Assembly: GCA_965204885.1 (NCBI GenBank)
Contig: OZ242019.1
Location: forward strand, 109,521 to 173,520
Direction: 5' to 3'
DNA from: Dehalococcoidia bacterium
Lineage (GTDB): Bacteria > Chloroflexota > Dehalococcoidia > UBA6926
Length of the DNA: 64,000 bases
Below the pieces are notes generated by a model. It had not been told where the DNA came from, searched no databases, and was given only the letters and a program-made list of their open reading frames with translations. Both the position numbers and the translations under genes were made by a program. The stretch's first letter is position 1, and the number at the start of each line of letters is the position of its first letter. Positions 45,118 through 49,627 of the stretch are shown here, piece after piece.

Positions 45118-45930
45118 TCAGAGCATCCGGGAGTTGGTGTCATCGATGGTTGGATAGGTTATATCGAGGAGAGAGGAAAAGGCCACCTTGAGCTTTTCGC
45201 GGTCTGCATTCGTCCACGATTGGCCGTCCTTGGGCAAAGCCTCAAGCACCCCGAGAATGGCCGGATGTATCCCATCCTGGCGAATAACGGCGTTTTCGTT
45301 TATCGGTAAGGAATTTTCGGGAATAATTTCCTTTTTCGGCGCTTCAGTCTCTTTTTCGGCTTGTCTAGCCGAATCTTTTCGATTATTCGTGGTCTTGCGC
45401 CGTGTTCTTGTCCCCTGGCTCCGCCCGAAAAGTCCTGGGTGCAGTTCTTTTCCGGCTTCATTCGCAAACGCAACGAAAAAGGTGACGGCTTTCTCGGAGG
45501 TCTCAGGGCCGGATCCGGCGCTTTGGAACGCCGTCTTGATCTGTCCACGAGTCGCCCGGGGCAAGTCGATTCCTTGAAGCAGCGGCGCATACCTCTCGTC
45601 AAACAGCGCTGCAAGAAGCTGCCGTTTCATCTCTTCGCTTGCCGGTCGAGTAAGTGTTTCAAGCCGCCGATCGGTATTTCCCTGTGCATCCATTAGGCCC
45701 AAAAAGAGTAGAGCGCCCTGGATGGCAGATCGGGTTGAACCTGAAAACGGCGTGTTACGCCACACGCTGGTGTCCAGCTGGTCCGGCAGCGGATCGAGAT
45801 CTGTCTTCACGAAAGCGATGAATGTCTCCCAGCTCTTGTATGAGCCGTAAGGAGGCGCCACACCACGCGACCTAGGACTACTTGTCACTTGTCCACCGCT
45901 CCGAAACCAGTTTTTCGCTGGTGCAATCAT
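45118..45930 (-). CDS. DUF5343-like protein (putative winged-helix DNA-binding)
   Basis: PPY...LP...ALLFLGLMDAQG...YAPLL...FF..FANEAG pattern, a basic linker and a small C-terminal domain. Visibly more AT-rich than its neighbours. Start may be GTG at 45888. Confidence 0.65.
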   Translation of the reverse strand: MIAPAKNWFRSGGQVTSSPRSRGVAPPYGSYKSWETFIAFVKTDLDPLPDQLDTSVWRNTPFSGSTRSAIQGALLFLGLMDAQGNTDRRLETLTRPASEEMKRQLLAALFDERYAPLLQGIDLPRATRGQIKTAFQSAGSGPETSEKAVTFFVAFANEAGKELHPGLFGRSQGTRTRRKTTNNRKDSARQAEKETEAPKKEIIPENSLPINENAVIRQDGIHPAILGVLEALPKDGQSWTNADREKLKVAFSSLLDITYPTIDDTNSRML

Positions 45931-46130: not shown

Positions 46131-47072
46131 ATGGTGGCGAATTCGCATATCTACCATGTCCCTGCCCTATTGGACGAAGTCATTGAAACGCTTCAGCCGT
46201 ATGCCGGTGGGAAGTACATTGACTGCACGCTCGGCGAGGGGTCCGTCACTGAGGCGCTCCTTTCCGCAGGCGCGCAGGTGCTCGGCATAGATGCTGATCC
46301 GGAGATGCTTTCGTCGGCGGCGCGTCGTTTGGGGGACCTGCCGAATGCGCAATACACGCTGGTGCAGGCGAACTTCGCGTCCCTTAAAGAGGTGGCAGTC
46401 GCACACGGCTTTACGGAGGCGCAGGGAATCATCATGGACGTTGGCCTGTCTTCTCGGCAGTTGCAGGCCATACGTCGCGGCTTCACATTCCAGGACAATC
46501 AGCCACTGGATATGCGGTATGACCCTCGGCAAGACGTCACCGCCGCAGACCTGGTGAATGATCTCCCGGAGCAGGAGCTTATCGACCTCCTCAGAACGTA
46601 CGGTGAGGAGGACGCGTGGTCGGCCCGGTCCATCGCGAGGACAGTTATGGGGAGGCGGCCACTCAGTACGACACGGGAGCTCGTTGAATGTATCGAGCTC
46701 GCAGTCGGGCAGCGCAGCGCGGCGCGAATACACCCGGCCACCAAGGCGTTCATGGCGCTTCGGATGGTGGTCAACGCAGATCTCCAGGCCTTGGAGTCGG
46801 CCCTCCCGCAGGCACTGGATCTGTTGGCTCCCGGCGGCAAATTGGCCGTCATCGGATACCAGAGCCTGGAGGATCGCCTCATCAAGCGATTCCTTCACCA
46901 GGAGGCAAAGGACTGCCTCTGCCCTACTGCCCAACTGGTCTGCACGTGCCAACACACGGCGACGGTCAGGCTCCCACGGCGGCAGGGAATCACTCCTTCC
47001 ATCGCTGAGATTGCGCGCAATCCCGCAAGCCGGTCGGCCCGGTTGCGGATCGCGGAGCGCGTCGCAGCGTGA
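46131..47072 (+). CDS. rsmH: 16S rRNA m4C1402 methyltransferase RsmH (MraW), divergent
   Basis: HVP.L, DCTLG, PLDMR, YGEE, HPATK, SLEDR and NP.SRSARLR motifs. Confidence 0.9.
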   Translation: MVANSHIYHVPALLDEVIETLQPYAGGKYIDCTLGEGSVTEALLSAGAQVLGIDADPEMLSSAARRLGDLPNAQYTLVQANFASLKEVAVAHGFTEAQGIIMDVGLSSRQLQAIRRGFTFQDNQPLDMRYDPRQDVTAADLVNDLPEQELIDLLRTYGEEDAWSARSIARTVMGRRPLSTTRELVECIELAVGQRSAARIHPATKAFMALRMVVNADLQALESALPQALDLLAPGGKLAVIGYQSLEDRLIKRFLHQEAKDCLCPTAQLVCTCQHTATVRLPRRQGITPSIAEIARNPASRSARLRIAERVAA

Positions 47073-47179
47073 CCGGAGGATCGGACAGTCAGGCAGTGCA
47101 GCGCGGGGAAAGCACAGGTACGAGAGGACAGCGGGCAGCGTAGCGCGGGAAGCAGTGAGAACGTGGGGAGTGGCGAGAG

Positions 47180-48529
47180 ATGGATCGGATAGTCGCCGGC
47201 ATCGAACTCGGTGAGAGGAAACTTCGAGTCGCCGTTGCACGGCATCGACCGGGATCTACCCGGATGCTCACGGGTATCGAGGCGCCCTCGGCAGGCATCG
47301 AAGACCAGAGAGTCGTCGATGCGCGTGAGTTGGCGGCCGCCCTGGACGGCATCTCCCGGAAACTGCGGACATCCGTCGATTTCCCTCTCGAGAACGCCGT
47401 GTTCGTCGTTCCCACCGGCCAGATCCAAATCCACGAGACTGAAGCAAGCATCCGGCCATCCGGCTCCCGGGGAACAGTGACAGAGGAGGACGGCGAGCGG
47501 CTGTTGGATAAGAGCCGCCCCGCCTTTCCGCGTAATGACCGCCACCTGATCCATGTCATCCCACAGGCGTACTTGCTGGACGGCAAGGAAACGGAGCGGC
47601 TGCCGGTTGGCAAGACAGGCCAGGACCTTCGAGTTCTCTCTCTGTCCGTCTCATGTGAGGCTGATACAGCGGCAAACATCCGCGAGGCCGCGCAGTTGGC
47701 CGGAAGCGACAGGGTTGCCGTAATGGCCGGGCCGATGGCGGAGAGTCATGCAGCGCTGACCGACACAGAGCGGGAACGCGGCGCTGCCGTTCTTTCCATC
47801 GGCGAGCGGATTAGCACGGTTACCATCATGCATTACGGTCAGTATCTTGGTTCGGCGAAGATCGGTATTGGTGCTCGGCATTTCACCAATGATCTCTCAA
47901 TCGCCCTCAATCTGCCCTACCCCACCGCCGAAGCTGTGCTGGAACAGGTTGCAACCTTTTCAAACACCGTGGGGCCATCACGCGCCGCAATAACGGTCGC
48001 TGATGAGGGCATCGACATTGACCGAGTGGAGATGGTGGCAACGCTCCGTGACCGAGCCGAAGAGCTCTTCTCTCTGACTGAGGACGCTATCGAGAGCATC
48101 GCAGGAGATCGCGAGTTGCCGGGCGGTCTGGCCATCGCCGGCCAGCCGATCTTGCGTGACGGGCTCTCCCAACTGGGACGTTCCGTGATCTCCATGCCCA
48201 TTCACTGGGCAGCGCCGCGCGGCATCGAGGGCATACCCCTCGCTATCTCAAATAACGCGGCGTGGGTACCGGCCATTGGGCCTCTCGTCTGGGCTGGAAC
48301 TATCAAGGATCCCCTAACACATCCGGCATTCCATTCCGAACCGGGCAGCAAGTCCGGCGGCATTCTGCGTCGCTTGACCGGTAGGTTCGGCGGACGAAAC
48401 GGAGCGAAGCCCCCTTCAACTGAAACATCGACTAACGACAATTCAGAGCGAGCCGCGCGCAGGAAGAATGCGTCGGTTGCTCGGGGTACCGGCAAGCGGG
48501 AAAGAAGCCGGGAAATAGCGCGGGTTTAG
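47180..48529 (+). CDS. ftsA: Cell division protein FtsA, degenerate nucleotide-binding motifs
   Basis: Lies immediately before ftsZ. 1C-domain motif IHVIPQAYLLDG, L...E.E.G, G..HFTNDLSIAL, and C-terminal amphipathic GILRRLTGRF. Confidence 0.82.
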   Translation: MDRIVAGIELGERKLRVAVARHRPGSTRMLTGIEAPSAGIEDQRVVDARELAAALDGISRKLRTSVDFPLENAVFVVPTGQIQIHETEASIRPSGSRGTVTEEDGERLLDKSRPAFPRNDRHLIHVIPQAYLLDGKETERLPVGKTGQDLRVLSLSVSCEADTAANIREAAQLAGSDRVAVMAGPMAESHAALTDTERERGAAVLSIGERISTVTIMHYGQYLGSAKIGIGARHFTNDLSIALNLPYPTAEAVLEQVATFSNTVGPSRAAITVADEGIDIDRVEMVATLRDRAEELFSLTEDAIESIAGDRELPGGLAIAGQPILRDGLSQLGRSVISMPIHWAAPRGIEGIPLAISNNAAWVPAIGPLVWAGTIKDPLTHPAFHSEPGSKSGGILRRLTGRFGGRNGAKPPSTETSTNDNSERAARRKNASVARGTGKRERSREIARV

Positions 48530-48559
48530 AGGAAACGGCAGAAAGGGAGGAAAACGGAT

Positions 48560-49627
48560 ATGTCACTGCCTGAAGATGTAGATGGGTTGGTTCGCATCAA
48601 GGCGTTCGGCATTGGCGGCGGCGGCGGAAACGCGGTCTCCAGGATGGCTCGAGAGGCCGTCCCGGGCATCGAGTACATCGCCGTGAACACGGACGCGCAA
48701 GCCCTTGCGCGCTCGGACGCGCCTTATCGCCTTCGCATTGGCGACCAGATCACCCGCGGCCTGGGCGCGGGCGGCAACCCTGAGATTGGCCGACAGGCCG
48801 CAGAGGAAAGCCGGGACGACATCTATGAGGCCGTCAAGAATTCTGACATGGTCTTCATCGCAAGCGGCATGGGCGGCGGCACCGGCACCGGCGCAGCCCC
48901 TGTTATCGCCTCAGTTGCCCGGGAAACCGGCGCGCTCACCATCGGAATCGTCACGCGACCCTTCGCTTTTGAGGGCACTCACAGGGCCCGACAGGCTGAA
49001 GAGGGAATTGCCAGCCTGCACGGCTGCGTTGACAGCCTAATCATCGTTCCGAACGAGCGGCTCCTTGCCGTGGCCGGAACGGAAGCCTCCTGGCATGATG
49101 CGTTCCGCATGGCTGACGATGTTCTGGGACAGGGCGTCCACGCCATCTCCGAGCTCGTCACCGTCCCCGGTGAGATCAACCTTGATTTCGCGGACGTGCG
49201 AACCGTAATGTCCATGTCCGGTCAGGCCCTCATGGCCATCGGTAACGGCCGCGGCAGCACGCGAGCAACGGACGCAGCGAAGGCTGCCATCCAGAACCCG
49301 CTCCTTGAAATCGATATCACAGGCGCAACCGGCGTCCTGTACAACATCACTGCCGGTTCCGACCTCTCGTTGGCGGAGATCCATGCAGCCTCGGACATCA
49401 TTTCCCAGGCCGTTGATCCCAACGCCAACATCATCTTCGGCGTCGTCTCCAACCGTGCCAGCGACGGTGAGGTCCAGTTGACCCTTATCGCCACGGGCTT
49501 TGAGACCGAGCAGGAAACCTTCGAGGATGACGAGGTTGTCGATCAAATCCTGCGCGACGCGCTCGGTGACGGAGACCTCGATCTCCCGCCGTTCCTGCGC
49601 CGCAAGTCGAGGAGGGTTGCTCGCTAA
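48560..49627 (+). CDS. ftsZ: Cell division protein FtsZ
   Basis: [23 protein letters not shown] and C-terminal LDLPPFLRR motifs. Confidence 0.97.

Follow-up and report, generated by a model that had tools for sequence, protein, structure and literature searches.

A sole FtsA with an altered nucleotide pocket, kept under selection in a genus of Dehalococcoidia

Results

The division locus and the identity of its middle gene

The window, that is, the whole stretch of 64,000 nucleotides analysed here, comes from a Dehalococcoidia genome (G000) of 1.85 Mb in a single contig, 92.8% complete, whose relatives at 85-93% identity are Dehalococcoidia or Chloroflexota MAGs. It carries a reduced division cluster with the gene order rsmH-ftsA-ftsZ, all on the + strand (Table 1). 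The open reading frame between rsmH and ftsZ encodes a protein of 449 aa (P0001) and is intact, as a preliminary description of this DNA had stated. P0001 does not reach the curated equivalog score for FtsA (TIGR01174, 144.4 bits for a cut-off of 175.85), while the profile of subdomain 1C (PF02491, SHS2_FTSA) matches residues 81-152 with 43.6 bits, above its cut-off of 25.4. The AlphaFold2 model, built from a 30-row alignment, has a pLDDT of 82.5, falling below 50 from residue 382 on, and predicts an actin-like fold with subdomain 1C, which had been described as kept and is so. Its best structural matches are all solved FtsAs (target TM 0.75-0.86, with 7Q6G, 7Q6D and 7Q6F at 0.85-0.86), and PilM comes next. 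A PilM or MreB identity was rejected, since both scores are below cut-off (25.9 of 133 bits for PilM and 16 of 293 for MreB) and the division-cluster context speaks against it. The gene stands directly before ftsZ, in the slot that a canonical ftsA fills in relatives, and it is the only copy: the possibility of a second, canonical ftsA elsewhere was checked by a local profile search of the 10,327 six-frame ORFs of the genome, which found none, and the one weak scorer as a second ftsA or MreB, a DnaK-sized ORF of 634 aa (E=0.001), was discarded. Descent, fold and position make P0001 an FtsA, but it fails the motif and score tests.

Table 1. Coordinates, within the window, of the division genes and of the features of FtsA and FtsZ
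Feature	Position	Strand	Remarks
rsmH (mraW), at the start of the reduced division cluster	46131..47072	+	Profile matches
ftsA with altered nucleotide pocket	47180..48529	+	P0001, sole ftsA of the genome; TIGR01174 144 bits; structure matches
Phosphate-1 motif, residues 7-14	47198..47221	+	E9, G11 and K14 as in E. coli; T17 to E12
Subdomain 1C, about residues 81-160	47420..47659	+	Pfam; D149 aligned with E. coli R153; two species lack residues 87-153
Phosphate-2 motif, residues 204-212	47789..47815	+	D210 to S206, G213 to E209, G214 to R210, T215 to I211
G236 to A232, and E-x-x-K motif with K258 to L254	47873..47941	+	Alignment; nucleotide-side role presumed
Subdomain 2B residues D238, R292, E295 (E. 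coli D242, R300, E303)	47891..48064	+	Kept; FtsZ-site role presumed
Adenosine motif, residues 318-323	48131..48148	+	G321 kept, G337 to Q322, then Pro
Predicted amphipathic membrane-targeting helix, residues 394-404	48359..48391	+	Hydrophobic moment 0.61, charge +3; omega 0.105; low pLDDT
Basic purine-rich C-terminal tail, 45 aa	48392..48526	+	Weak constraint; G009, G012 and G014 have a short or different tail
Canonical ftsZ	48560..49627	+	TIGR00065 398.6 bits; omega 0.02
Conserved C-terminal peptide of FtsZ with its basic end (+6)	49574-49624	+	Within ftsZ

At the place usually taken by mraZ lies a divergent gene (45118-45930, - strand) that matches DUF5343 weakly (E=0.01), and the same arrangement is seen in G022 and G024; MraZ had no match in 4/4 family genomes tested and one weak match in G026. 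The spacers flanking ftsA (47073-47179 and 48530-48559) are strongly purine-rich (73% and 87%).

The amphipathic helix and the basic tail of about 45 aa behind it were both correctly described. The helix is predicted, is internal and not terminal, and has a moment and charge within the range of canonical relatives, on the hydrophobicity scale that we assumed. The tail evolves at omega 0.32-0.50 and its last 28 codons are 65% purine; because its end is purine-rich like the spacers around ftsA, its composition suggests that it arose through read-through into spacer DNA. We rejected the tail as a key element given its weak constraint, its spacer-like composition and its absence or difference in three genomes. 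Within subdomain 2B, D238 and R292 occur in all genus sequences and E295 in 96%, and the corresponding D242/R300/E303, which we take to be the FtsZ-binding site of FtsA, are also retained in the independently decayed proteins of G096 and of G048 and G123. The 2B helices as a whole are unremarkable, with 37-48% of random windows equally or more conserved, and an omega of 0.007 for 13 hand-picked 2B codons was discarded as evidence, the set having been chosen after the alignment was seen. A complex prediction of FtsA 1-378 with FtsZ 318-355 scored 0.00; it gave no answer and counts neither way.

Which pocket residues have changed

Residue equivalences were read from the gap-free segments of an alignment with E. 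coli FtsA (7Q6D) and are, with P0001 first, E9=E14, G11=G16, E12=T17 and K14=K19 in phosphate-1; S206=D210, G208=G212, E209=G213, R210=G214 and I211=T215 in phosphate-2; and A232=G236, E251=E255, L254=K258, G321=G336 and Q322=G337 further on. The telling changes, in E. coli numbering, are T17E, D210S, G214R, G236A, K258L and G337Q. The preliminary description had called all three motifs degenerate, quoting them as GIELGERK, VLSIGERIS and AIAGQP, and here it was right about the decay but partly misread it. The phosphate-1 motif has a glutamate for T17, but E9, G11 and K14 match E. coli; D210 and G214 are truly replaced in phosphate-2, but its G-E is also found in an ATP-bound FtsA from S. aureus; and in the adenosine motif the second glycine has become glutamine, followed by proline, but the first is kept. 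The changes at G236 and K258 had been missed. We presume that G236, E255, K258 and G337 contact the nucleotide.

The substitutions are genus-wide, all 22 of 22 genus genomes being non-canonical. Each of five states (E/D12, S206, R/H210, L/M254 and Q/R/L322) is shared by 26-27 of the 27 distinct genus sequences but by 0 of 154-155 reference FtsAs, a set picked by profile score that leans canonical by construction; A232 is found in 25/27 versus 3/155. The references (n=155) were the top profile-search matches among 50%-identity representatives, 380-480 aa in length, plus 14 relatives' loci, and the comparison excluded L016, P0076 and P0088, three proteins with only part of the changes. Of the references, 137 are canonical at all 10 pocket sites scored, 13 deviate once and 5 twice, as against 5-7 deviating sites in the genus and 6 in P0001, which does not have the phosphate-1, phosphate-2 and adenosine motifs intact. 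At position 9, P0001 and E. coli (E14) have Glu, but 154/154 references have Asp. E14 and D210 are described as active-site residues of E. coli FtsA, in which D210A neither complements nor forms rings (PMC10213515).

The pocket has not been lost significantly more than the rest: 10/15 pocket columns and 28/62 other conserved columns are gone (Fisher p=0.16), and five thresholds gave p=0.09-0.57. Judged from the alignment, it is for this reason the whole protein that has diverged, and not the pocket alone. This bears on a different reading of the changes, namely that the pocket is remodelled and not dead, still binding ATP or ADP (perhaps without hydrolysis) in a divergent but ordinary FtsZ tether. 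We consider it unlikely, even though it would account for the lack of pocket-specific loss, for the constraint on the pocket codons (omega 0.097) and for the persistence of E9, G11, K14, G208 and G321 in most of the genus. It could also draw on S. aureus FtsA, whose phosphate-2 motif is G-E-D-V-T and not GGG and whose structures were solved with ATP and AMPPNP, and on T. maritima and S. pneumoniae FtsA, for which a preprint states that ATPase activity was not observed (10.1101/2023.08.29.555414). However, S. aureus FtsA retains D210, K258 and the TGG motif, whereas here six changes coincide, among them K258, present in 99% of references, and G337, present in 100%, and some genus members have additionally lost G11, K14 or E251.

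Selection and history

Across the genus the whole ftsA gene has an omega of 0.133-0.159. Codon models on 21 sequences gave 0.140 for ftsA, 0.023 for ftsZ and 0.088 for rsmH; with 19 sequences, the two most aberrant being left out, omega was 0.133, with lnL -10243 versus -11046 when fixed at 1. The core of ftsA (residues 1-375) has an omega of 0.127, compared with 0.020-0.186 for nine neighbours (14-16 close loci), near trmD (0.100) and rsmH (0.092). That the copy might be decaying neutrally beside a canonical ftsA elsewhere had been named as grounds for dismissing the whole idea. We regard a neutral remnant, whether the cell has another functional ftsA or can do without one, as very improbable and largely refuted: a fast genus stem branch, a 1C deletion in two species and the loss of ftsA in the sister genus are what it would predict, but neutrality is rejected by about 800 log-likelihood units, there is no internal stop in the 22 genus genomes and there is no second copy. 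At the sequence level, nucleotide-binding residues have been lost from a protein that is under selection, as in a pseudo-ATPase, and the earlier proposal of a pseudo-ATPase FtsA was a fair one, given the sole copy, the genus-wide changes, the selection and the lack of matches to mraY, murG, SEDS, PBP and mreB.

In an RpoB tree of 28 genomes the genus groups with a second lineage, g3 (support 98), and the sister genus g2 falls outside. On the RpoB topology (25 genomes) the genus stem branch measures 1.00 substitutions per site for FtsA versus 0.105 for RpoB and 0.121 for FtsZ, and the stem common to the genus and g3 measures 1.12 for FtsA versus 0.237 for RpoB; the outgroup FtsA/RpoB ratio is about 1.9. 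The g3 FtsA has only T17E and G214R/K among the pocket changes. From these long FtsA stems and the few changes in g3, constraint on FtsA appears to have been relaxed early, in the family ancestor, with most pocket changes fixed on the genus stem and now maintained. P0076, a 447-aa FtsA of unknown source, has intermediate pocket changes (E12, E206, R210, R322) and is a possible step between g3 and the genus.

Partial deletion of 1C, loss of ftsA and the class-wide pattern

All 22 genus genomes carry a below-cut-off ftsA with an open frame. In one of them (G012; L051:1219-2289, P0024) a clean in-frame deletion has removed residues 87-153, the greater part of 1C, leaving a protein of 348 aa, and a second species has the same deletion in a protein (P0023) 88% identical to it; both have also lost most of the tail. 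The sister genus g2 has no ftsA match in 3/3 genomes (93, 69 and 62% complete), and in the two examined (L056:3550-5721 in G022 and L057:2292-4424 in G024) rsmH ends 22-40 nt before ftsZ. SepF was found in 0/41 genomes and in 0/5 in a further test, and MinD exceeded its cut-off in 0/5, whereas ClpX, which reads the FtsZ tail in E. coli (PMC5256927), is present in 5/5 genomes tested. The FtsZ next to P0001 does keep the conserved C-terminal tail peptide that the preliminary description pointed to, but we reject this peptide as evidence of tethering by FtsA, because the same tail core, with the same +6 end, persists in G022 and G024 where ftsA is gone, and because a known reader of the tail is present.

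These ftsA-less relatives also raise the possibility that FtsZ in this family is anchored without FtsA, by its own basic tail or by an unknown partner, and that the altered FtsA has been retained as an accessory regulator with a different interaction to serve. The sister genus, with neither ftsA nor SepF and with its +6 FtsZ end, and four further genomes with no ftsA beside ftsZ (G046, G072, G168, G179) fit such an arrangement, for which M. genitalium FtsZ, binding liposomes via its own helix, provides a precedent (10.1101/2023.08.29.555414). Still, we think it improbable: the sister genus branches off before this one and may have a solution of its own, relatives whose FtsA is canonical can have a basic FtsZ end (+5) as well, and FtsA retains its helix and D242/R300/E303.

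Among 251 class genomes at least 90% complete (G225 enters only this tally), ftsA scores above its cut-off in 207 and is without a match at 1e-18 in 26. We took 19 class genomes, selected because they scored low or to represent canonical members of the families. The number of deviating pocket sites is 8/10 in G096 and 4-5 in G048 and G123; the five f30 genomes fetched have all lost K258; the FtsA of G261 is missing much of 1C; and in G046, G072, G168 and G179 rsmH abuts ftsZ. Each of five ftsA-less genomes tested has 2-3 FtsZ-family matches. Because a FastTree of FtsZ+RsmH (41 genomes), whose deep nodes are weak, places the decayed or lost cases in different clades, next to canonical relatives, pocket decay is, by sequence comparison, recurrent in the class.

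In G048 and G123 (loci L102 and L104) the phosphate-2 motif reads G-L-D-A-G-T-T and K258 is M, with mraY kept in the dcw cluster. In ftsA-less G046 and G179 (L119, L120) the dcw FtsZ is without the conserved tail motif and has basic aromatic ends, which might bind membrane. In G077 (L098) ftsZ matches only from profile position 190, and in G151 (L109/L116) ftsA is split over two frames; these breaks are frameshifts or assembly errors.

Cell-wall genes

Profile searches of the genome gave no match to mraY, murG, SEDS, PBP/transpeptidase or SepF, and MreB stayed below its cut-off, in line with the division without peptidoglycan that had been supposed. Loss of dcw genes with mraZ-mraW-ftsA-ftsZ still adjacent has been described in Dehalococcoidales and SAR202 (PMC10608941, PMC11994032). 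Wall loss does not, however, explain the decay of the pocket. Seven Dehalococcoidia (G025, G026, G033, G034, G036, G038 and G039) have no mraY over cut-off yet a canonical pocket, so wall loss is not sufficient; G048 and G123, of one genus, have a decayed pocket with mraY about 8-9 kb upstream of ftsA (G048 also with a murG match), so it is not necessary. On this comparison of sequences we rejected it as a cause in both senses.

Discussion

From its sequence and predicted model, and with moderate confidence, we read P0001 as most likely a nucleotide-independent adaptor keeping FtsZ at the membrane. An acidic residue in phosphate-1, the absence of the Asp from phosphate-2, the exchange of a phosphate-loop and an adenosine glycine for Arg and Gln, and the loss of K258 would together abolish productive Mg-ATP binding; subdomain 2B, through D238, R292 and E295, would still grip the FtsZ tail; the amphipathic helix would insert in the membrane; and the ATP- and FtsN-regulated switching of filaments would be gone. 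Historically, relaxation in the family ancestor would have been followed by the pocket changes on the genus stem, with ftsA deleted in the sister genus. Consistent with lost filament switching, 1C could be deleted in two species and P0001 has Asp at the R153 position; this D149 is one half of the E. coli mutant M96E R153D, which forms no double filaments (PMC7613929, PMC11323482). Several points count against an adaptor. The constraint on the new pocket residues would be expected of a remodelled site no less than of a plugged one, and D242/R300/E303 could be structural, 2B helix conservation being unremarkable. Residual nucleotide binding is possible, given the pocket residues that are kept and the S. 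aureus precedent. Moreover, ATP enhances FtsZ recruitment by FtsA in E. coli (PMC8897712), so a nucleotide-free tether would need compensating changes.

In a sponge metatranscriptome, a 3.7-kb contig of a relative (about 93% identical) spans rsmH-ftsA-ftsZ at a depth of 44, compared with 1-4 for the upstream gene; this is a weak hint of expression, as contigs cannot show transcription or its level. In runs X1 and X3 only the ends of ftsA are covered, and such coverage holes prove nothing.

P0001 resembles known FtsAs (TIGR01174; PF02491, PF14450; PDB 7Q6D, 7Q6F, 3WQT, 1E4G, 4A2A) in its predicted fold with 1C, its place before ftsZ, its D242/R300/E303 residues and its C-terminal amphipathic helix, at about 21-27% identity, but differs from them in several respects: (i) it scores below cut-off (144 versus 176 bits); (ii) six pocket residues are replaced and Asp stands at R153; (iii) a 45-aa tail follows the helix; and (iv) no FtsW/FtsI-type genes were found in the genome. 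PilM and GspL/EpsL are actin-like scaffolds with the same FtsA-like fold, and GspL/EpsL reportedly has no ATP site; however, these proteins serve pilus or secretion assembly, whereas P0001 scores far higher as an FtsA (144 versus 26 bits for PilM) and lies in a division cluster. The E. coli mutants D210A, E14R and M96E R153D (PMC10213515, PMC8897712, PMC7613929, PMC11323482) are instructive, as D210 and R153 are naturally changed here (S206, D149); those mutants fail, whereas the altered P0001 is the only FtsA of its genome and is under selection.

The nearest precedent, as far as its main-text portions go, is a survey of mycoplasmas (10.1101/2023.08.29.555414). In that wall-less lineage, too, the dcw cluster is reduced to the order mraW-ftsA-ftsZ (see also PMC8475190), FtsA is divergent and unannotated and ftsA has been lost recurrently, with FtsZ only in 10/113 species; the gene in the ftsA slot is dispensable in M. 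genitalium (PMC8475190). In contrast to the mycoplasmas, FtsZ is here a canonical protein whose tail is intact, mraZ is absent, and the change maps to the pocket, whose motifs those portions of the preprint do not discuss. The parts of PMC10608941 and PMC11994032 on Dehalococcoidia peptidoglycan do not mention FtsA motifs either, and no report of a pocket-less FtsA was found in the open-access literature, which leaves subscription papers mostly outside this coverage.

More tentatively, and with the balance somewhat against it, the Dehalococcoidia may preserve a repeated series of reductions of the Z-ring anchor: a canonical FtsA, an ATP-blind FtsA, an ATP-blind FtsA of 348 aa that without 1C would be a minimal monomeric tether, and finally the absence of FtsA, SepF and wall synthases alike, where FtsZ would be self-anchored or have a new anchor. 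The role of the FtsA ATP cycle beyond passive anchoring has been described as unclear (10.1101/2023.08.29.555414). Mycoplasmas already provide examples of a divergent or absent FtsA, the loss of the wall is here neither a necessary nor a sufficient condition, and the pocket loss is read from sequence. If the ATP-blind forms are real, the nucleotide cycle and filaments of FtsA would be dispensable for holding a working Z-ring. The pocket-altered FtsA, the form without 1C, the canonical wall-less relatives and the FtsZ-only relatives with neither FtsA nor SepF form a comparison set for reconstitution, one that bears on the division of wall-less Chloroflexota and on minimal division systems.
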